Below, piece by piece: positions 886 through 63,217 of a stretch of 64,000 nt of DNA. Within the stretch, counting starts at the first letter, position 1. Each line of letters starts with the position of its first letter. The notes below the pieces were generated by a model. The model was not told where the DNA came from, made no database searches, and saw only the letters and a list, made by a program, of their open reading frames with translations. The translations under genes were made by a program, and so were the position numbers. Source of the DNA: an uncultured Thermodesulfobacteriota bacterium (GTDB lineage Bacteria; Desulfobacterota; WTBG01); contig CAZOKO010000001.1 in NCBI GenBank assembly GCA_964580455.1, forward strand, positions 2,992 to 66,991, written 5' to 3'.

Positions 886-2259
886 ATGAAAAGTTTAACA
901 CCAAAGGAAATCGTATCCGAATTGAACAAGTATATTATAGGTCAGCATAATGCTAAAAGGGCAGTTGCTATTGCCCTGAGAAACAGATGGAGACGCCAGA
1001 ATGTCTCCGATGATCTAAAGGATGAGATTGCCCCCAAAAACATCATTATGATTGGTCCCACTGGTGTGGGTAAGACAGAGATATCCCGAAGATTAGCCAA
1101 CCTCTCACAGTCTCCTTTTTTAAAGATTGAGGCTTCTAAATTCACGGAAGTTGGTTATGTAGGCCGAGATGTTGAATCGATGGTGCGGGATTTAACTGAT
1201 CTTGCTGTTAACCAGATAAAGGCTGAAGAAGCAGAAAAGGTTCAGGTCAAGGCTAAAGAAATCGCGGAGGAACGTATCCTTGATCTTCTGCTTCCACCCC
1301 GACGAGAGGAGAAGAGGAGCTACAATGAATCATCTCCAGAAAAACCCCTCGAGCTGGTAAAAAAAGAGCAGGAGCAAGAGAATACCACCAGAGAGAAGCT
1401 CCGCAAACTTTTAAAAGAGCACAAATTGGACGAAAGGATGGTCGAGCTTGAAACCACTCAAAGGACCGTTCCCATTGTTGAAATCTTTTCAGCCGCCGGC
1501 ATGGAGGAAATGGATATCAATGTTAAAGATATGTTCGGTAACCTCTTTCCCAAAAAGACGCAAAAGAGAAAGGCAAAAATCTCAGAGGCGTTAGAGATCA
1601 TTGCCCAGGAGGAAGCCCAACGGTTAATTGACATGGACAAGGTTACTAAACAAGCCATCGAAAGAGTCGAACAGTCTGGAATTATCTTCTTAGACGAGAT
1701 TGATAAGATCGTGGGAAAAGATAGTGCTCATGGTCCTGATGTCTCACGAGAAGGGGTACAGCGAGATTTGCTGCCTATCGTAGAGGGCTGTACTGTCACT
1801 ACCAAATACGGAATGGTAAAAACCGATCATGTTTTATTCGTTGCCTCAGGAGCATTCTACAGCTCAAAGCCATCAGATTTAATACCGGAGCTGCAAGGAA
1901 GATTTCCCATACGGGTGGAATTGGAATCACTGGGCAAAGAGGAATTTATCCGAATTCTAACCGAGCCTCAAAACGCATTAATCAAACAATACAGGGCATT
2001 AATGGAAACGGAAGGAATTGAGTTGGTCTTTGGAGATGACGCCATAGCGGAAATTGCCGAAATTGCAACCATCGTCAATGAAAGAACTGAAAATATCGGG
2101 GCACGCAGGCTCCATACCATTATGGAAAAACTCTTAGATGAACTCTCATTTGATGCACCCGATTTAGAAAAGAAAGCGTTTACTATTGATGCTAACTACG
2201 TAAAGGGAAAATTGAGCAGTCTGGCCAAAGATGAAGACTTAAGCCGCTACATACTCTAA
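886..2259 (+). CDS. hslU: ATP-dependent protease ATPase subunit HslU
   Basis: AAA+ protein with Walker [10 protein letters not shown], an I-domain insertion, and a C-terminal [10 protein letters not shown] sensor. The start is trimmed from the ORF-track start (841) to the internal ATG at 886 ([10 protein letters not shown]...), which is the typical HslU N-terminus. Confidence 0.9.
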
Positions 2260-2358
2260 TGGGATTAAAAAACCACAGAGAACGCAGAGGTAAAAATATT
2301 TAATGGATGTCATTTCTCTGCGAGCTCTTTGGTTAATCATACCCCGGGAGCTACTCTA

Positions 2359-3240
2359 ATGCAAAAGTTAATTGATAAAGCCACTGTCTTGATGGAGGCA
2401 CTACCCTATATTCGCCGTTTCTATCAGAAGACTATCGTCATCAAGTATGGTGGCCATGCCATGATAGAAAAGGAATTGAAAAAAGATTTCGCCATGGATA
2501 TCACTCTGATGAATTATATTGGATTAAATCCAGTAGTGGTTCATGGCGGAGGCCCCCAGATAGAAGACGTATTAAAAAAGATGGGGAAATCTTCGAAATT
2601 CATCGAGGGCTTAAGAGTAACCGACGAAGAAATCATGGAAGTCGTTGAAATGGTTCTGGTGGGGAAAGTCAACAAGGAAATCGTCAGCTTAATCAACCTG
2701 CAGGGTGGAAAAGCTGTGGGGCTAAGCGGTCAAGATGGACATTTAATTACCGCAAAAAAACTAAGACTTTCGTCTTTGCGCTCCAAAAACAATCGCCACA
2801 AAATCAAAGACATGGGATTGGTAGGGAAAGTAGAATCCGTAAATCCTCATGTCATTGAGACACTGGATCGAAGTAAGTTTATTCCAATTATCGCTCCCAT
2901 TGGCACTGGGAAAGATGGGGAAACCTATAACATCAATGCAGATATGGTAGCAGGGGAAATTGCTTCTGCCCTTAAAGCAGAAAAATTGATTCTCTTAACC
3001 GATACCGAAGGGGTATTAGATAAAAAAGGAAATCTTATCTCATCCATGAATGAAAAGAAAGCAAGGACCTTTATAAAGAAGGGACAGATTTCAGGAGGAA
3101 TGATCCCCAAGGTTAACTGCTGTTTACAGGCTTTAAAAGAAGGTGTAGCAAAAGCCCATATTATTGATGGGAGAATCAAACATGCCATCCTGCTGGAAAT
3201 ATTCACCGATGTGGGTATCGGCACTCAAATTACAGGATAG
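2359..3240 (+). CDS. argB: acetylglutamate kinase
   Basis: Amino-acid kinase family with motif IKYGGHAM. It heads an argB-argD-argF-argG run. Start trimmed to MQKLIDKA... at 2359. Confidence 0.85.
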
Positions 3241-13819: not shown

Positions 13820-13830
13820 TTTTTCCTCCT

Positions 13831-14100
13831 GATGCATGATTCATGATGCAAGATACATGGTGCAGAGGTCAGAAGTTAGCTGTCAACCCTCAATAGTCCC
13901 TCGTTATCCGGTTGCGTTGCTTCTTATTCTCAAGTTAGATTTAACTTTATTCATAACCGATTCACAAATACCGATGCGAGCTGCGTAACCTCAACCGTTT
14001 AACCTGGTCGAAACCTTATAGAGTTTTATTAACCAACTTCTTAATCCTGTATCCTGTATCCTGCATCCTGTATCCTGTATCCTGCATCTTGCATCCTGCC
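13831..14100. repeat. composite intergenic element E1: inverted tandem-heptamer arrays (GATNCAN x4 … ATCCTGY x8) flanking a ~180-bp core
   Basis: Left arm gatgcatgattcatgatgcaagatacat. The right arm is eight tandem 7-mers atcctgt/atcctgc, whose reverse complement reads GATRCAG units. The same architecture recurs at 55.3 kb and 63.0 kb. Confidence 0.7.
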
Positions 14101-15434: not shown

Positions 15435-16763
15435 ATGAAAAGAATTCTAACTATTGCCGCCTCTGATTCTGGTGGTGGTGCAGGAATTCAAGCTGATCTG
15501 AAAACCATTGCCCTTATGGGCAGTTTTGGAATGAGTGCTATTACTGCCTTAACCGCACAAAACACAACAGGAGTGAAAAAGATTCAAAAAATACCTGCAA
15601 GTTTCATTGCCAGCCAGATTGATGTGGTCATTTCAGACCTGGGTGTAGATGCAGTCAAAACAGGGATGCTTGTCGATACAGAAGTGATAGAAACCGTTTC
15701 TCACAAACTGCGGGCTTATCACATCACAAAGATTATTGTTGATCCAGTAATGGTAGCAAAAAGTGGGGTTCCTCTTCTAGCCGAGGAAGCCTATCTCTCT
15801 CTTAAAAGAGAGCTTATTCCCCTGGCCTTTGTTATAACCCCCAACCTCTATGAGGCATCTATTCTCACAGGCAAAAAGATTGAAAAGGTTTCTCATATGA
15901 AGGAGGTTTCAAAAAAGATTTATCAGATGGGTGCACAAAACGTTTTAGTAAAAGGGGGGCATCTCACTGGAAAACCCGTTGACATCCTCTATGATGGCAA
16001 AGAATTTCACGAATTCGAGACGGAAAGGATTAACACCAAAAATACTCATGGAACCGGCTGTACCTTTTCAGCAGCAATTGCTACAGAAATTGCAAAGGGT
16101 ATACCAGTCACTAAAGCAGTCAAGAACGCGAAAGACTTTATCACAAACTCCATCAGATTTTCTTTAAATTTAGGCAAAGGATATGGCCCTGTTAACCCCT
16201 ATGCCTCTTTTACTCAACATCAGGAGATAATACAGCACAGCAAGGAACTGAAACATGCCTTAAAAAAACTTAAAGAAGGAAATATCGGTCACTTAATCCC
16301 CGAGGTACAATCAAACCTGGGCTATGCCCTTCCTCATGCTGCCAGTTTGCAGGAGGTATTTGCCTTTCCCGGAAGGATTGTAAGACTTAATCACAGTATA
16401 ACCACAGTGGCTGATCCTGTGGCTGGTGCCTCTCGTCACGTAGCTCAAATCATTCTTACTGTGATGAAATTCAGAAGTGACTTAAGGTCTGCCATGAATA
16501 TAAAGTACTCTCAGGAAATCATCAGGAAGTGCCGAACATTGAAATTTAAACTGGGCACATTTAATCGCAAAGATGAACCTGAAAGGATTAAGAAGAAAGA
16601 AGGGGCAAGTCTCAGCTGGGGGATAGAAAATCTCCTGAGCAAAAAAAGGACCGTTCCTGACATCATTTATGACAGGGGAGATATGGGAAAGGAACCAATA
16701 GTAAGAGTCATTGGTAGAAATCCCCTGGACGTAGTAAACAAGGTATTGAAAATTGCGCATTAA
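15435..16763 (+). CDS. thiD: hydroxymethylpyrimidine/phosphomethylpyrimidine kinase fused to a ThiN-type thiamine-phosphate synthase domain (ThiDN)
   Basis: N-terminal ~265 aa are a PfkB-like ThiD (IAASDSGGGAGIQADLKT… GKGYGPVNPYA). The C-terminal ~175 aa resemble the ThiN domain seen in archaeal/Thermotoga-type ThiDN fusions. Confidence 0.75.
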   Translation: MKRILTIAASDSGGGAGIQADLKTIALMGSFGMSAITALTAQNTTGVKKIQKIPASFIASQIDVVISDLGVDAVKTGMLVDTEVIETVSHKLRAYHITKIIVDPVMVAKSGVPLLAEEAYLSLKRELIPLAFVITPNLYEASILTGKKIEKVSHMKEVSKKIYQMGAQNVLVKGGHLTGKPVDILYDGKEFHEFETERINTKNTHGTGCTFSAAIATEIAKGIPVTKAVKNAKDFITNSIRFSLNLGKGYGPVNPYASFTQHQEIIQHSKELKHALKKLKEGNIGHLIPEVQSNLGYALPHAASLQEVFAFPGRIVRLNHSITTVADPVAGASRHVAQIILTVMKFRSDLRSAMNIKYSQEIIRKCRTLKFKLGTFNRKDEPERIKKKEGASLSWGIENLLSKKRTVPDIIYDRGDMGKEPIVRVIGRNPLDVVNKVLKIAH

Positions 16764-18081
16764 AGACCAGGAGAACATAGTGAATCAGCTTGAGCAAGCA
16801 AGAAAAGGTATAGCAACTAAAGATATAGAAGAGGTCGCTTCTTCTGAAGGGGTGGATCCTCAATTCATTATAGAAGGGATGGCAGCAGGACATATTATCA
16901 TTCCCCGCAATAAAAACCATACAACTATCCCTCCAATTGGTATAGGGAAAGGGCTGCGCACCAAGATAAATGCTAACATCGGCACCTCGAAAGACCATCA
17001 GGATATAGAAGAAGAGTTAAAAAAGCTTCGGTTATCTGTTAAATCAGGTGCAGACACGGTTATGGACTTAAGCACGGGTGGTCCTCTGGATGAGATTAGA
17101 AACACCATTCTCAAGGAATCAACGGTTCCTATTGGAACAGTACCTGTCTACCAGGCCGTAATTGAAGCAGTTCAAAGCGATAAGGCAATGGTTCATATGT
17201 CTACCGAGCTGCTCTTTAAAGTAATTGAAAAACATGCCGAAGATGGGGTTGACTTTATCACTGTTCACTGTGGATTAACACGGGAATCGGTAGGAAGGCT
17301 TAAGAGAGAAGGACGGTTGATGGATGTAGTCAGTCGGGGAGGTGCATTTACCGTTGAGTGGATGGCCTACAATAAAAAAGAAAATCCCCTTTATGAACAC
17401 TATGATAGATTACTGGACATTGCTTATGAGTATGATCTCACTTTAAGTCTGGGAGATGGGCTGCGACCGGGCTGTCTGGCTGATGCAACCGACAGAGGGC
17501 AGGTCCAGGAACTGATTATATTGGGAGAGCTGGCAGAACGCGCATGGGCTAAAGATGTGCAGGTGATGATTGAAGGACCAGGACATGTCCCCATTCACCA
17601 GATTACAACTAATGTTCAACTGCAAAAACAACTCTGTCACGGTGCCCCTTTTTATGTATTGGGACCACTGGTAATTGATATTGCCCCAGGATATGATCAT
17701 ATTACCTCAGCCATAGGTGGTGCCCTTGCTGCCTCTGCAGGTGCTGATTTTCTATGTTATGTTACACCCTCGGAGCACTTAAGGCTTCCTACCATAGAAG
17801 ATGTAAAAACCGGTGTTATCGCCTCTAAGATCGCTGCTCATGCTGCTGACATTGCTAAAGGGGTTAAAGGTGCCATGGAAAAAGATATAAAAATGGCAGA
17901 GTGCCGAAAAAAAATGGATTGGAAACGGCAGATTGAGCTATCCCTGGACCCTGCTTTAGCAGATCAACTTCGCTCCACCAGTCAGCCAGCCGACAAAGAT
18001 GTCTGTACCATGTGTGGAGAATTCTGCGCAATTAAACTGCTCAACAAAGAAGAGCGCTGGAAATATTTTGATAATTTTTAA
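16753..18081 (+). CDS. thiC: phosphomethylpyrimidine synthase
   Basis: 442-aa short-form ThiC with the C-terminal CTMCGEFCAIK cluster motif. It overlaps thiD by 11 bp. Confidence 0.9.
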   Translation: MRIKDQENIVNQLEQARKGIATKDIEEVASSEGVDPQFIIEGMAAGHIIIPRNKNHTTIPPIGIGKGLRTKINANIGTSKDHQDIEEELKKLRLSVKSGADTVMDLSTGGPLDEIRNTILKESTVPIGTVPVYQAVIEAVQSDKAMVHMSTELLFKVIEKHAEDGVDFITVHCGLTRESVGRLKREGRLMDVVSRGGAFTVEWMAYNKKENPLYEHYDRLLDIAYEYDLTLSLGDGLRPGCLADATDRGQVQELIILGELAERAWAKDVQVMIEGPGHVPIHQITTNVQLQKQLCHGAPFYVLGPLVIDIAPGYDHITSAIGGALAASAGADFLCYVTPSEHLRLPTIEDVKTGVIASKIAAHAADIAKGVKGAMEKDIKMAECRKKMDWKRQIELSLDPALADQLRSTSQPADKDVCTMCGEFCAIKLLNKEERWKYFDNF

Positions 18082-34668: not shown

Positions 34669-35307
34669 TCAGGTAATTGACATGGATTTCTTAACAAGTA
34701 TAGCATTTAACAATGTTGGAAATAGAGCACAGGAATACTTACTACTCACAAGACCAAACCTCCGCATAATGCGCATAATCACAGTTGGGGCAAATATTTC
34801 CTGACGAGCGAGGTTGGCAGTGAGAGGTAACCTTTCCCCTCTGATTTTTGTGTAATAAAAGGACCTATCCTCTACTAGCTCACATTCAGGGAATAGAACT
34901 GATAAGGAAGCTGGGGTAAATCTCCAATAATCATCGGGAAATGTATGAATTTCCCAGACAAAAGGAACACTTATGAATATCACTCCTCTCTCGGCAAGGA
35001 ATCTACTAATATTCTCTGCCATCTTAAGTGGATACTTGCAATGCTCTAGGACACTAAAACAAATTACAGTCTTAAACTTTTCAATCCCCATTTTGTTTTT
35101 TATCAATTCATAATCCGAAGTAAAATCACAAACAACATCAACGCCTTTACCCGGTTCCTGATCAACCCCTATGTAGGTTTCGGTCTTAAATAATTGTCTG
35201 AAGTCATTTGCATTTCCGTACTGTTTGCTTCCTACCTCCAAAATATGCCCTTCAACCATATGACGATTCTCAATTACGAAATCTAGTTGGTTTTGGTGTC
35301 CCGACAT
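34669..35307 (-). CDS. class I SAM-dependent methyltransferase
   Basis: Motif I ILEVGSKQYGN. Start placed at the ATG forming a TAATG overlap with the wzt stop (35305–35309). The longer ORF-track start would overlap wzt by 73 bp. Confidence 0.6.
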   Translation of the reverse strand: MSGHQNQLDFVIENRHMVEGHILEVGSKQYGNANDFRQLFKTETYIGVDQEPGKGVDVVCDFTSDYELIKNKMGIEKFKTVICFSVLEHCKYPLKMAENISRFLAERGVIFISVPFVWEIHTFPDDYWRFTPASLSVLFPECELVEDRSFYYTKIRGERLPLTANLARQEIFAPTVIMRIMRRFGLVSSKYSCALFPTLLNAILVKKSMSIT

Positions 35308-36611
35308 TAGCTTAGCTCCTGTCTTTTGGTAATCCATTGTAAGAGCGGGCGAACCACTCCGGGCATCTCTCCCCCCCAATCGCCACGCGCGGAATTGCCA
35401 CTAGCATTATCCACTATCTGAAAGGCTATAACGTCTTGCTCACGTACATGCTTGACAGTCGGACTTATCGTGCTGATCCCAGCGAAAACAAACACGGTCC
35501 CTTCCGCCATGAGATTGGCGGGTATCCAGGCCATAGTGGTATAACATCCTGTGGGTCGAGGCTGTTGACGCCATTCAGGGTCTGTGTCTATGGCAGTGAA
35601 GATTACCATACCATACTGGTTGGTGAGACGAAAAACCGGTGTGAGTACGACATCAGGCTTGAGCACATTGTACCGCATTACGAGTGCAAAAGGTCGGCAA
35701 ATATCAATCGCTTCACTTACCTTTCCATCTTCGTTCTGGACGTACACAGCTCGTAATCGAACTATATCGTCACCCGGTGCATTGTTGAGTTTACGCCATT
35801 CTCGCTTTGCCACAGTACCTAGATCAGACTGAAGATAGGTAGCTACAACCTGTTGAGAAGGCCCATCTTGTATAACCTGACCCTCATTCAACAATATCGT
35901 GCGTTGACACAGTCGAGTAATAGACGGCATACTGTGAGAGACAAACAACACCGTCCGTCCGCCTACTCCGATCTCACCCATCTTCTCCAAGCATTTCTTC
36001 TGAAAGCGGATATCCCCCACTGCCAGCACTTCATCCACTAGCAATATCTCCGGCTCCAAGTGGGCTGCCACAGCAAAGGCTAGGCGCACATACATACCGC
36101 TGGAATAGTACTTCACTGGTGTGTCTACGAACTTCTCGAGCTCAGCAAAGGCCACGATCTCGTCGAACTTGCGGTCGATCTCGTCCCGTTTCATCCCCAG
36201 GATGGCGCCGCTGAGATAGACATTCTCCCGCCCGGTCAGCTCGGGGTGGAAGCCAGTGCCCACCTCCAGCAAGCTGCCCACCCTCCCGTGGATCTCAGCA
36301 CGGCCTTCGGTCGGCTCGGTGATGCGGGAGAGGATCTTGAGCAGCGTGGTCTTGCCCATCCCGTTGCGTCCAATGATGCCTACAACTTCGCCATGTTTAA
36401 CCTCGAATGAGACGTCCTTAAGTGCCCAGATGAAGTTAGTTGATGGCTGATGGCTCGTGGCTGATGGCCGATGGTCGGTTCTTCTAGCCCGACGGCGGAA
36501 AGGTGAAGAGAAGGCATTCGCTATGCTCTCCCGAAGAGTCTTATAGCCTACAAACTGACCTACACGATAAAGCTTACCTAAGTTTTCTGCTTTGATGGCG
36601 ATGTTGCTCAT
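35307..36611 (-). CDS. wzt: ABC transporter ATP-binding protein Wzt/KpsT-type with C-terminal carbohydrate-binding extension
   Basis: TagH/Wzt-type N-terminus (MSNIAIKAENLGKLYRV…), Walker A GRNGMGKTT, signature YSSGM, Walker B LLVDEVLAVGD. A ~170-aa C-terminal non-ABC extension fits the Wzt_C β-sandwich described for O-antigen terminal-cap recognition. Confidence 0.75.
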   Translation of the reverse strand: MSNIAIKAENLGKLYRVGQFVGYKTLRESIANAFSSPFRRRARRTDHRPSATSHQPSTNFIWALKDVSFEVKHGEVVGIIGRNGMGKTTLLKILSRITEPTEGRAEIHGRVGSLLEVGTGFHPELTGRENVYLSGAILGMKRDEIDRKFDEIVAFAELEKFVDTPVKYYSSGMYVRLAFAVAAHLEPEILLVDEVLAVGDIRFQKKCLEKMGEIGVGGRTVLFVSHSMPSITRLCQRTILLNEGQVIQDGPSQQVVATYLQSDLGTVAKREWRKLNNAPGDDIVRLRAVYVQNEDGKVSEAIDICRPFALVMRYNVLKPDVVLTPVFRLTNQYGMVIFTAIDTDPEWRQQPRPTGCYTTMAWIPANLMAEGTVFVFAGISTISPTVKHVREQDVIAFQIVDNASGNSARGDWGGEMPGVVRPLLQWITKRQELS

Positions 36612-37003
36612 GGATTATCCTTGATAGGAGACCGATGACCGTGGACGGGAACACCTAAAGCTTTCCGAAAAGCTTGCAATTTAACAAAAATCTCGTGCCC
36701 AAATTCCCTTATTTCCATAAGTAAATCACTGGATAAATAGTCTCGTCGTTCTATGATATCCAAACATGCTATTGTCTCCAAATAGGATCTCAAAGCCAAT
36801 CCAAGAAAACGGTTCTGCTCTGCATTGGTTTGTCCAGTTGAACCCTCTGCAATATTCAGCACGACAGAAGTTGCTGCTCGCTCTAATTGGTTCCGTAGAT
36901 TGAATCGCTCTGAGACAGGTAGCTTGCTTGAACACCCATATATTTTGTCAACATAATCCAAAGCCAAACGGTAAACATCCAGACGCTGAAACTTGTATTT
37001 CAT
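36608..37003 (-). CDS. four-helix-bundle protein (23S rRNA intervening-sequence protein/Avd-like, TIGR02436-type)
   Basis: KYKFQRLDVYRLALDY…LPVSERFNLRNQLERAATSVVLNIAEG… is typical of the family. Start set at ATG 37003, which has a GGAGGA Shine-Dalgarno 6 nt upstream. The stop overlaps the wzt start by 4 bp. Confidence 0.7.
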   Translation of the reverse strand: MKYKFQRLDVYRLALDYVDKIYGCSSKLPVSERFNLRNQLERAATSVVLNIAEGSTGQTNAEQNRFLGLALRSYLETIACLDIIERRDYLSSDLLMEIREFGHEIFVKLQAFRKALGVPVHGHRSPIKDNP

Positions 37004-37041
37004 ATATCCTCCGTTTCCAGTCTCTTGTCTCCTGTCTGCTT

Positions 37042-37899
37042 TCATATCACATCAGCAAAGGTTCTTTCACTACGTCGGAAATAAAACGCCCCTGAAATCA
37101 ATACCACTATTACAATTATAACAGAGATGGCCATCAAAGAGCCAGGCGGCGCTTTACCTAAAAGAGCCCAGCGGAAACCCTCAATTACTCCAGCCATGGG
37201 ATTAAATCCATATATTATTTGAAATTTCTCTGGCAGGAGGCTCGATGAATAAACCACTGGCGATGCAAAAAGCCATAGTTGAATTACAAATGGTATTACA
37301 TAGCGCACATCGCGATATCTTACATTTATTGCCGAGAGCCATAGGCCCACTCCTAAAGCAGTCATCAACGTTAGAAGGATAAATGCTGGCAACCAGAGTA
37401 TTTGGATAGTGGGAGGATAACCATAATAAAACATCATACCGATCAAAATAGTAAAGGCGATAGCAAAGTCAACCAGAGGGGAGAGGATACCAGAAAGGGG
37501 CATAACCAGCCTGGGGAAATATACTTTCCGAACGAGATTAGCATCCTGAACAAGGATGTTGCTTGAACGTGTTATGCCTTCAGCAAATAAGGTCCAGGGA
37601 AGCAATGCAGCATAATTAAACAGTGGATATGGGACCCCCTCTGAAGGAACTTTCGCCAGGTTGCCGAAGAATAGAGTAAATACTACCATCATAAAAAAGG
37701 GCTGGATAATTGCCCAAGCAGCACCCAGGAGTGTTTGCTTATAGCGTACTTTAATCTCCCGCCAGGTGAGAAAATACATCAGTTCGCGATAGATCCATAA
37801 ATCCCTTAAGTTTATTGGTATCCAACCCCTTGTGGGACGAATAACCACCATAGGCAATGAATTTATATTTGATTCACGCTTAAAGATATTCGCTTTCAT
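37042..37899 (-). CDS. wzm: ABC-2 type polysaccharide export permease Wzm/KpsM-like
   Basis: 285 aa with six predicted TM segments and ABC-2 family features. It lies immediately upstream of wzt. Confidence 0.75.
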   Translation of the reverse strand: MKANIFKRESNINSLPMVVIRPTRGWIPINLRDLWIYRELMYFLTWREIKVRYKQTLLGAAWAIIQPFFMMVVFTLFFGNLAKVPSEGVPYPLFNYAALLPWTLFAEGITRSSNILVQDANLVRKVYFPRLVMPLSGILSPLVDFAIAFTILIGMMFYYGYPPTIQILWLPAFILLTLMTALGVGLWLSAINVRYRDVRYVIPFVIQLWLFASPVVYSSSLLPEKFQIIYGFNPMAGVIEGFRWALLGKAPPGSLMAISVIIVIVVLISGAFYFRRSERTFADVI

Positions 37900-40262: not shown

Positions 40263-40600
40263 AGCTCACGAAGGTTTACAAAGTGTTGAAATGTTACTTA
40301 GCCACAGATTTCACAGATTTTCACAAGAAGGTATTTACAAAAACGCAAACTCACCTATGGCTTCAGCAACTGAAAAAGTTCTGTTTTTCAAATAGCTAAT
40401 TCTTTATATCTAAAATCTTAATAATCTGCGTTTATCTGCGTCCGAGAAATAAATTTCTCATAGTATAAATCCAGTGTTCAATTATTGAACATTGTAAACT
40501 AATATCGGAATATGTCAAGATTTTCTTTAATATTTTGTAGTTATTCACCACAGGGAACACGGAGATGCACGAATCTGCAACCACGAAGTTTACAAAGTGT
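40263..40600. repeat. ~300-bp direct repeat, copy 1 (left flank of TA array)
   Basis: About 92% identical to 43303–43612. It contains the CACAGATT repeats, the 15-bp palindrome GTTCAATTATTGAAC and atctgcgtttatctgcgtcc. Confidence 0.85.
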
Positions 40601-43302: not shown

Positions 43303-43612
43303 AAGCTCACGAAGTGTTGAAATATTTCTAGCCACAGATTTTCACAAGAAGGTATTTACAAAAACGCAAACTCCCCTACGGCTTCAATAACTGAAAAAGT
43401 TCTGTTTTTTAAATAGCTAATTCTTTATATCTAAAATCTTAATAATCTGCGTTTATCTGCGTCCGAGAAATAAATTTCTTATAGTATAAATTGTGTGTTC
43501 AATTATTGAACATTATAAACTAATATCGGAATATGTCAAGATTTCCTTTAACTTTTTGTAGTTATTTACCACAGAGAACACTGAGATCATAAATTGAAAC
43601 CACGAAGTTCCT
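43303..43612. repeat. ~300-bp direct repeat, copy 2 (right flank of TA array)
   Basis: Near-identical to copy 1 and lies immediately upstream (minus-strand sense) of TA pair 3. Confidence 0.85.
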
Positions 43613-55303: not shown

Positions 55304-55526
55304 TCGATACACGATTCAAGATTCACGATGCATGATTCATGATACACGATGGTATTTTATAACTGCCTCTCTAAAGTTATAGAGCTTTGCACCTAATTCT
55401 TCATATCTATGAAAAAATCTTTCGAAAATGTCTTTCTCAAGTGATTCAGTTTCATAAGCATCTCTAAATGAACTTTAGTTTCATTCCTGCATCCTGTATC
55501 CTCTATCCTGCATCCTGCTTGTATCA
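55304..55526. repeat. composite intergenic element E2: inverted tandem-heptamer arrays (GATNCAN x6 … ATCCTGY x5) flanking a ~130-bp AT-rich core
   Basis: Left arm gatacacgattcaagattcacgatgcatgattcatgatacacgatgg. Right arm attcctgcatcctgtatcctctatcctgcatcctgc. Confidence 0.7.
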
Positions 55527-62983: not shown

Positions 62984-63016
62984 CGAAGCTTCACCTCACC
63001 GACGAGCCTTCGCTAT

Positions 63017-63217
63017 ACTAGATACTGGATACTGGATGCAAGATACAATATGTAGGATTTCGTTCTAACAGGGTAAATATCGGTGTTTATAAATCGGTTA
63101 TGGGTACAACCAAAATTAAGAGCAACTCAACCGTGTTACGAAAGACGAAACGAGCAGCGCAACCGAATAACGAGCAACTTTTTTATCTAGGATCCAGTAT
63201 CTAGCATCCAGCATCAC
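63017..63217. repeat. composite intergenic element E3: inverted tandem-heptamer arrays (ACTGGAT… / …ATCCAGY) flanking a ~140-bp core
   Basis: Left arm gatactggatactggatgcaagataca, right arm ggatccagtatctagcatccagcatc; the two are reverse complements at the unit level. The core shares ctcaaccgtNtta and ggttgcg(c/t)tgc words with E1. Confidence 0.7.

Follow-up and report, generated by a model that had tools for sequence, protein, structure and literature searches.

Why should a gene for a small four-helix-bundle (4HB) protein, of a family known from the intervening sequences (IVSs) of 23S rRNA, lie between the permease and the ATPase gene of an ABC exporter? The question is raised by a stretch of 64,000 nt from the genome of an uncultured Thermodesulfobacteriota bacterium (contig CAZOKO010000001.1; the whole stretch is referred to as the window), in which a first-pass annotation had noticed such a gene wedged between wzm and wzt. 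The minus-strand open reading frame (ORF) at 36608..37045 is confirmed at this position by the ORF map and by its scores against PF05635 (87.0 bits; gathering score 33.8) and TIGR02436 (81.7 bits; cut-off 24). The function and origin of the IVSs of rRNA, and of the S23p/4HB ORF in them, have been debated since about 1990 (PMC4990558). The answer that we favour, as probable though well short of certain, is that the 4HB gene is carried as cargo by a hairpin cassette of the IVS type, with the ORF in the loop and inverted heptamer arrays as the arms, seated exactly in the gap between wzm and wzt.

The 5´ arm of the cassette (37004..37038, minus strand) consists of the five heptamers CAGACAG GAGACAA GAGACTG GAAACGG AGGATAT and occupies the space between the wzm stop codon and the ATG of the 4HB gene. 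It begins 3 nt past the stop, a period of 7 is reported by TRF at 37016-37037, and its last units supply the Shine-Dalgarno (SD) sequence GGAGG of the 4HB gene. The 3´ arm (36623..36650, minus strand), with the four heptamers TCCCGTC CACGGTC ATCGGTC TCCTATC, is complementary to the 5´ arm and lies within the coding sequence of the C-terminal tail of the 4HB protein. The two arms are predicted to pair in both the minimum free energy fold and the centroid fold of the element. Since changes in copy number and shifts in register make the arms of different loci unalignable, base-level covariation was dropped and arm-to-arm duplex energies were compared with those of dinucleotide shuffles instead. 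The resulting z-score is -3.0 for the window, with a median of -2.1 over 36 loci and 53% of the loci below -2.

The arms are a property of the entire 4HB subfamily to which the window protein belongs (53–85% identity). A metagenome scan keyed solely on 4HB peptide words gave 80 loci which, together with loci fetched earlier, form 38 clusters at 95% nucleotide identity. All 38 representatives share the design of a 5´ array (GRRGACN)n and a complementary 3´ array (NGTCYYC)n. The density of phased GAC units (GRRGACN) in the 5´ flanks is 4.0 per 100 nt, and that of phased GTC units (YCNGTCY) in the 3´ flanks is 4.3 per 100 nt; with background densities of 0.05 and 0.04, respectively, both are enriched 80–100-fold.

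Judged by sequence comparison, the 4HB gene is an insertion relative to the common wzm–wzt arrangement, a reading that holds because its presence in related wzm–wzt loci is not universal. For comparison, wzm loci were taken from species-representative genomes, the 80 closest being used (Wzm identity 56–84%). The best-matching Wzm belongs to metagenome-assembled genomes of Dehalococcoidaceae, and an ArgG in the same 90% cluster as that of the window is labelled Deltaproteobacteria. In most of the 80 loci wzt follows directly after wzm at a distance of 1–4 nt, and in none of the 80 is the gap occupied by the 4HB subfamily of the window; another 4HB lineage is found there in three and toxin–antitoxin (TA) modules in four. 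Empty sites, in which the wzt ATG follows the wzm stop after 1–4 nt, are seen in L006, which is the closest locus (Wzm 84%), and in L008, L010 and L011 (L numbers designate individual loci). At filled sites, the same interval measures 423–482 nt; the insert starts 0–6 nt past the wzm stop and ends about 7 nt past a retained wzt SD. No target-site duplication is visible at the junctions in the DNA-level comparison. Loci with and without the 4HB gene interleave in a rough neighbour-joining tree of Wzm, as exemplified by L095, which has the gene and is the sister of L006, which lacks it, and by the window and L086 (with the gene), L008 (without it) and L007 (with a TA module). The first-pass annotation had proposed to compare orthologous loci and would have taken universal presence as a mark of an integral exporter subunit; the 4HB gene does not universally accompany wzm and wzt in orthologous loci. 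As described below, the 4HB protein diverges in step with its neighbours, although it is present in some loci and absent from others.

Other occupants of the identical wzm–wzt gap were also recorded. TA-type modules comprise a PIN/VapBC-like module in L007 (4801-5645), a nucleotidyltransferase (NTase) with a HEPN protein in L032 (4819-6002), and RelE/ParE-like modules in L022 (2004-4716) and L071 (4831-5567); L007 has possible GTC-type heptamer remnants directly before the wzt ATG. In L091 (67-351, 4474-4665, 6963-7211) and in L092, L093 and L099-L103, which are of the same type, a multi-kb island of TA genes separates wzm from wzt. A 63-aa ORF directly after the 4HB gene of these loci matches residues 1–40 of Wzt, and a second N-terminal fragment of Wzt is found further along; the 5´ end of wzt seems to be duplicated by the cassette or to move together with it. 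An integron-like cassette array was considered for these islands and rejected, as the arrays bound only the 4HB gene and not the TA genes.

In architecture and in the type of heptamer, the cassette matches bona fide 23S rRNA IVSs. The S23p ORF of the Coxiella burnetii IVS lies within a 28-bp terminal stem that is cut by RNase III, and its ATG is preceded by two to three tandem GACAGAT heptamers, the number of which varies among strains (PMC4990558). A genuine 23S IVS on plasmid p2 of Azospirillum lipoferum (L178) has GACAGAA/GACGGAG upstream and CTGTCTT/CCGTCCT downstream. The ORFs of 23S rRNA IVSs (C. burnetii, Leptospira, A. lipoferum) belong to the same protein family as the window 4HB and are likewise enclosed by terminal complementary sequences that form a stem, which is a predicted one in the window. 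The GAC-type heptamers directly 5´ of the ATG, GACAGAT in Coxiella and GACAGAA/GACGGAG in Azospirillum, have their counterpart in GACAGGA/GACAAGA/GACTGGA in the window, and variable copy number of the repeat and a patchy phylogenetic distribution are common to both kinds of element. The host site differs: IVSs are found in helix 25 or 45 of 23S rRNA, whereas the window cassette resides in an intercistronic gap of an mRNA, between two protein-coding genes, and not in a helix of 23S (or 16S) rRNA. Furthermore, the window ORF is under strong purifying selection and probably translated, in contrast to the decaying and untranslated ORF of Coxiella, and, unlike in the 23S IVS, its 3´ arm codes for a tail whose stop falls on the start codon of the following gene.

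Flanking arrays are not restricted to the subfamily of the window. Eighteen other 4HB lineages carry arrays of 7–8-nt repeats on their flanks, each with a unit of its own, e.g., AATTTCG (L017, L018), GCGGATT (L051), AAGAGCG (L037), GGAACCA (L117), GCTCAAA (L169) and, in a degenerate copy, GAGCAGA (L128). L017, L018, L051 and L128 are located in wzm–wzt gaps and L037 directly upstream of wzm. An independent sample was drawn from a plasmid database. Flanking arrays are present at 4HB genes in the order cas6–4HB–cas4 in Anabaena and Pseudanabaena (L174, L180) and cmr2–4HB–cmr3 in Picosynechococcus (L179), and at a 4HB gene located between ribonucleotide reductase (RNR) subunit genes, on the opposite strand, in Nostoc (L175). 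Of four distant members picked at random, all four have arrays; one lies between the genes for the NiFe hydrogenase large subunit and hypA (L182), one between those for a CN_hydrolase and an agmatine deiminase (L183), one upstream of a gene for an LTD protein and one on a short contig. A unit of 8 nt is used by four lineages. When arrays were scored as the self-match fraction at a lag of 7 or 8 in the best 28-nt segment, with a threshold of 0.64, an array on at least one flank was found in 14/14 non-subfamily lineages and 33/38 subfamily loci, compared to 8/70 control genes in the same loci, and arrays on both flanks in 11/14, 18/38 and 0/70, respectively (Mann-Whitney test of the scores, p = 2.5e-9 for non-subfamily lineages and p = 6e-15 for subfamily loci). 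Because these other lineages occupy unrelated operons and rRNA, it is the cassette, and not glycan export, that constitutes the shared feature. In the literature, the only precedent found for arrays beside a 4HB ORF is the local observation in Coxiella; no publication joining flanking heptamer arrays with the 4HB family in general was found, and the link may be published elsewhere.

The CRISPR-associated cases have been noted before. Zhang and Ye (2014) described 23S_rRNA_IVP genes wedged in CRISPR-cas operons and read the association as functional, without mention of repeats (PMC3936711). Like L174, L179 and L180, these are single small 4HB genes inside a conserved operon (cmr2–cmr3, cas6–cas4); they differ from the window gene in host operon and in 4HB lineage, the subfamily of the window being glycan-specific.

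The protein itself is clearly functional, judging by its pattern of conservation. Its core (residues 1-116, MKYKFQ...FRKAL; 36656..37003, minus strand) carries the matches to PF05635 and TIGR02436, and a sequence match to the solved pentameric 4HB protein XCC0516 (2GSC) has an E-value of 8e-13 at 35% identity. An AlphaFold2 model from an alignment of 42 sequences (pLDDT 87) has four helices at residues 8-25, 30-55, 60-86 and 92-115 and a disordered tail, which falls outside the family profile. Foldseek aligns the model with 2GSC at TM 0.82/0.91 and an rmsd of 1.2 A, with BT_0352 (2RLD) at TM 0.74/0.90, and with Avd (4DWL, 8UB7) at TM 0.72–0.74/0.86–0.87 and 9–11% identity. XCC0516 and BT_0352, annotated as ‘S23 ribosomal protein family’, share with the window 4HB the fold and the motif RxxxSxxxNxxE, here R42...S46...N50...E53, which is invariant or nearly so in the subfamily; the predicted difference is the extra, disordered tail of 15 residues that derives from the repeat arm. 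The family motif GxxRxxxSxxxNxxE (Lin 2006; Zhang and Ye 2014) is present save for its first position, where Q39 replaces G. The core is not basic (median pI 6.9). The ratio dN/dS of the core has a median of 0.13 over 26 pairs and is 0.16 between the window and L086; together with more than 1,000 close relatives in the databases, this shows that the 4HB gene is not a chance ORF. Proteins of 245–281 aa that are matched by the query in two stretches each, i.e. tandem double-4HB proteins, were also seen (P0202, P0205, P0206, P0225, P0237, P0243, P0247, P0249, P0250 and P0260).

The subfamily is old, under purifying selection, nearly confined to glycan loci and mostly located at or next to wzm or wzt. 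It makes up few of the at least 5,990 clusters that the family forms at 50% identity. Its closest members on long contigs (85%, 74% and 70% identity) all have the order ABC2_membrane–4HB–ABC_tran, which is that of L086, L088 and L090. At least 26 of the 38 non-redundant loci have wzm and/or wzt contact, with the 4HB gene between the two, directly upstream of wzm or at a TA-expanded junction, and at least 33 of 38 are glycan loci. The remaining glycan contexts involve a carbamoyltransferase, a family 2 glycosyltransferase (GT2) with a sulfotransferase, a UDP-sugar dehydrogenase, a GNVR/tyrosine-kinase Wzz-like protein, DegT and a nucleotidyltransferase; L135, with a caspase-like protein and a Uma2 nuclease as neighbours, is a clear non-glycan exception. 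Across the 11 loci that have the 4HB gene, wzm and wzt together, pairwise identity averages 66% in 4HB and 57% in Wzm, compared to 67% in the nucleotide-binding domain (NBD) of Wzt, and identities are correlated between 4HB and Wzm (rho 0.63), 4HB and Wzt (rho 0.51) and Wzm and Wzt (rho 0.53). L086 (3112-5730) and the window are 89% identical in Wzm and 82% in 4HB and only 54% in full-length Wzt, which implies that recombination has joined a conserved and a serotype-specific half of the locus, with the breakpoint at the cassette or immediately behind it. Taken together, the selection on the gene, the correlated identities, the interleaved Wzm tree and the divergent Wzt of L086 point to a long co-residence with repeated loss, gain or exchange, in which the cassette would sit at a recombination boundary. 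In L128 and L129, a 4HB gene of the window subfamily is found upstream of wzm, and L128 has in addition a frameshifted and decaying 4HB gene of another lineage in its wzm–wzt gap (2185-3102), with arms GAGCAGA/CTGCTCC.

The junctions with the two exporter genes reveal how the cassette is fitted into the operon. Upstream lies wzm (37042..37899, minus strand; PF01061, 79.7 bits, with weak matches to Wzm/KpsM NCBIfam models), the TGA stop codon of which is at 37042-37044 by the ORF call, and downstream wzt (35307..36611, minus strand; PF00005, 82 bits, with a weak C-terminal match to Wzt_C, E = 8e-4), the product of which also matches NCBIfam models for galactan/teichoic-acid exporter ATPases. 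The frame of the 4HB gene remains open as far upstream as another ATG, at 37045, which shares bases with the wzm stop. Since this codon is not conserved among relatives (ATA in L086, none in L098 and L136) and NCBI calls the 131-aa form (P0001), we reject it as a genuine start, and translation is likely to begin at the ATG at 37003. The first-pass annotation was correct in giving this ATG its own SD, the GGAGG at 37008-37012, and in describing an ATGA-type overlap at the other end (36608-36611), where the TGA of the 4HB gene (36608-36610) shares bases with the ATG of wzt (36609-36611). The C-terminal tail (residues 117-131, GVPVHGHRSPIKDNP, and stop; 36608..36655, minus strand) results from translation through the 3´ arm and through the ribosome-binding site of wzt (AAGGA, 36618-36622).

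This tail is a recurrent feature of insertion upstream of wzt. Outside wzt contexts, the 4HB stop codon mostly falls 4–6 codons past the core (…FRKSLxx and stop). In 17 non-redundant loci a wzt start is found within 400 nt downstream; the tail exceeds 10 codons in 14 of these, and the stop overlaps the wzt start in 13 (by -4 in nine, -8 in three and -1 in one). The overlapping-stop tails, of 17–60 codons, read through the 3´ arm, such that their GPRSPV/PRSSVSG repeats are translated heptamers, and the wzt SD (AAGGA/AAGGAGG-like) is kept directly before the ATG in all filled sites displayed. The own SD, the kept wzt SD and the stop on the wzt ATG thus recur elsewhere and lend support to the earlier suggestion of a selfish insertion that preserved operon polarity. 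What the first-pass annotation did not include were the heptamer arrays, the age and glycan specialization of the subfamily and the origin of the tail from a translated arm; on the insertion itself it was right. The co-opted accessory subunit that it offered as the other choice may apply, the evidence favouring it neither way.

A relay of ribosomes would account for these features. The arms would pair within the operon transcript. The 5´ arm holds the 4HB SD and starts within 0–6 nt of the wzm stop (3 nt in the window), so that a ribosome that terminates at this stop would open the arm, expose the SD and allow initiation on the 4HB gene. Lacking the usual stop after the core, the 4HB ORF would be translated through the 3´ arm and the kept wzt SD and terminate on the wzt ATG; translation of the tail would unfold the stem and bring the ribosome to the start of wzt, so that the polarity of the operon is kept. 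By analogy to the IVSs of rRNA, the stem is a likely substrate for RNase III. Spread and loss of the cassette would be explained most simply by homologous recombination through the conserved 3´ end of wzm and 5´ end of wzt, and not by transposition.

Several observations weigh against this interpretation. The stem and the ribosome relay are predictions. The duplex z-score is above -2 in about half of the loci, and the fold of the whole element of 451 nt is no better than shuffles (z = -1.3), the latter value being uninformative because the interior of the ORF dominates. As a pointer to a stem at the RNA level, the greater stability of the sense over the antisense strand is marginal (24/36 loci, p = 0.049). 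The ATGA overlap is partly automatic, as wzt starts with ATGA even at empty sites; the feature that needs explanation is the loss of the earlier 4HB stop and not the overlap. Three lineages (L176, L180 and L181) have direct and not inverted arrays and are left uncovered by the hairpin model. No mechanism of mobility was identified, and most loci are on metagenomic contigs without taxonomy. Finally, purifying selection, glycan specificity and divergence in step with wzm and wzt suit a role beneficial to the host equally well as, or better than, a purely selfish one. In Pseudanabaena, for instance, the upstream array comprises 17 units of GCTAAAA and the downstream one, in the same orientation, about 10 units of GCCAAAA.

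A role of the latter kind is the substance of the most serious alternative, which we consider less probable than the cassette and still worth holding in mind: the 4HB protein would be a co-opted regulator of glycan loci that targets, probably as RNA, the arrays surrounding the start of wzt and those in the linker of Wzt, or other glycan transcripts. Conceivably, and with the same reserve, it would tune the Wzm:Wzt stoichiometry or couple export to synthesis, and be an accessory of one exporter clade instead of a passenger. A dN/dS of about 0.13 with a conservation equal to that of the Wzt NBD, the location of at least 33/38 non-redundant members in glycan loci, including those with carbamoyltransferase, GT2, UDP-sugar dehydrogenase and Wzz-like neighbours, and a divergence that follows the neighbours are all what such a regulator would display. 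So are the compact GAC-then-GTC hairpins about 140 nt into wzt of 4HB-bearing loci. For the STRR (7-bp tandem repeat) hairpins found between cyanobacterial cistrons, e.g., hupS–hupL, an effect on the stability of the transcript or on translational coupling has been proposed (PMC2670836). However, the closest relatives L006 and L008 do without a 4HB gene, unrelated TA modules are found in the same gap, other lineages reside in unrelated operons and in rRNA, the core is not basic, and the sequence offers no sign of contact with Wzm or Wzt. The company of TA modules in turn suggests an addiction- or defence-type module that stabilizes, or rides on, a frequently exchanged and phage-exposed surface-glycan locus. 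PIN/VapBC-like (L007), RelE-like (L022, L071) and NTase+HEPN (L032) modules share the gap, L091-type 4HB genes lie inside a TA island that splits wzm from wzt, NTase/HEPN pairs are found directly upstream of the window operon, and 4HB genes are enriched near cas genes (PMC3936711). We nevertheless find this explanation improbable: the 4HB is a single gene without a conserved partner, the family is not known to have a toxin-like motif, and the searches gave no match in PHROGs and, in PADLOC, a single one at chance level, to PifA (E = 0.002, 14.6 bits).

The fold leads to a further candidate, the accessory protein Avd of diversity-generating retroelements (DGRs), to which the first-pass annotation had drawn a link. 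Avd of the Bordetella phage BPP-1 DGR (bAvd; 4DWL, 8UB7) shares the four-helix-bundle fold (TM about 0.73/0.87), and PF05635 is the commonest Pfam family beside DGR reverse transcriptases (PMC10053308). The identity to Avd is 9–11% vs. 35% to the IVS-type XCC0516, and the core of the window protein is not strongly basic. A Pfam scan of about 42 of the 53 window ORFs of at least 150 aa revealed no reverse transcriptase, nor is there one in the precomputed Pfam annotation of the operon, and the window has no pair of template and variable repeats, its only long direct repeat (255 nt, 40312/43333) flanking an NTase/HEPN island. The DGR role is rejected because the ORFs scanned hold no reverse transcriptase and the window no such repeat pair; we see hardly any chance that it applies. 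A different matter is what the protein does inside a hairpin cassette. That it acts on its own flanking repeats is the guess that we prefer. In a specific and rather doubtful form of it, 4HB proteins would bind their flanking 7–8-nt repeats sequence-specifically, one unit per subunit of the pentamer, in the style of TRAP on (G/U)AG. Protein and inverted arrays would then form a self-contained, autoregulated module of RNA (or single-stranded DNA), with the unit co-evolving with the protein lineage, which might settle in any tolerant transcript (rRNA helices and cas, hydrogenase, polyamine, RNR and glycan intercistronic gaps); arrays at the wzt start and in the linker would put Wzt synthesis under 4HB control. 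This is mildly favoured by the presence of about 19 lineages with a repeat unit each, by the strong purifying selection on the protein and by the GAC-type unit, which is retained at a protein identity of about 37%, in three host phyla and at three kinds of host site, a degree of retention beyond that required by base-pairing alone. Counting against it, common descent of the whole cassette explains the co-occurrence, and the core is not basic.

If the window gene is the cargo of a hairpin cassette, then the IVSs of rRNA become one habitat among those of a wider class of such elements. In Coxiella, the best-studied case, the decaying and untranslated ORF had made the protein look irrelevant; the IVS architecture is now seen in messenger RNA, with an ORF conserved like an ABC ATPase domain, and all other lineages sampled, with host operons of six kinds, have this design as well. 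The long-known STRR-type heptamer hairpins would become tied to a protein family, the ‘association’ of 4HB genes with cas genes would be explained without a CRISPR function, and the question of what IVS elements are becomes more testable. The wzm–wzt gap emerges as a recurrent landing site for small modules and would be the point at which recombination separates the conserved half of the locus from the serotype-specific one.

Heptamer repeats are also found inside wzt. A second array in the window, about 4.9 copies of GCCATCA on the sense strand by TRF (36441..36474, minus strand), is one-sided; its translation, DHRPSATSHQPS, is the variable linker that leads from the N-terminal strand to Walker A. 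In an alignment of Wzt N-termini, the linker before Walker A is hypervariable, with heptamer-derived low-complexity sequence in many 4HB-bearing loci. Many of these have a compact hairpin of a GAC array followed by a GTC array, translated as RRKTEDR...SPVSGPRS; wzt-internal arrays are located at 4779-4856 in L104, 3638-3715 in L108, 3615-3699 in L120 and 7101-7164 in L091.

The glycan operon continues downstream of wzt with methyltransferases, including a rhamnosyl O-methyltransferase-like and a NanM-like sugar O-methyltransferase, and further upstream there are two genes of the GDP-mannose-dehydratase/epimerase type. A second copy of the 4HB gene is absent from the window, as phmmer against all six-frame ORFs matched only the gene itself. 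No Rfam family reached its gathering score across the whole 64-kb window, which contains no rRNA, and there was no match to the thiamine pyrophosphate riboswitch that is conceivable in the 520-nt region upstream of thiD/thiN–thiC (15435-18081). The two copies of the 255-nt direct repeat (40312-40566 and 43333-43587; 94% identity, 3,021 nt apart) bracket the NTase/HEPN pair island directly upstream of the glycan operon, which may be a duplicated or mobile TA block.

The window also holds three hairpins without an ORF, at 13830-14098, 55305-55518 and 63015-63215, all of them intergenic between minus-strand genes. Their arms are inverted heptamers (GATGCAT/GATACAT vs. ATCCTGT/ATCCTGC) and their loops measure about 140–180 nt; no 4HB remnant was found in the loops. 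As intercistronic hairpins of tandem heptamers they resemble the cyanobacterial STRR elements, which likewise have no ORF in the loop and for which no link to the 4HB family has been drawn; the organism of the window is not a cyanobacterium. Each is predicted to fold better as minus-strand than as plus-strand RNA (-92.8/-71.2, -64.5/-42.8 and -63.8/-59.1 kcal/mol, in the order given above), a difference accounted for by G:U pairs, which suggests that these hairpins form stems at the RNA level.

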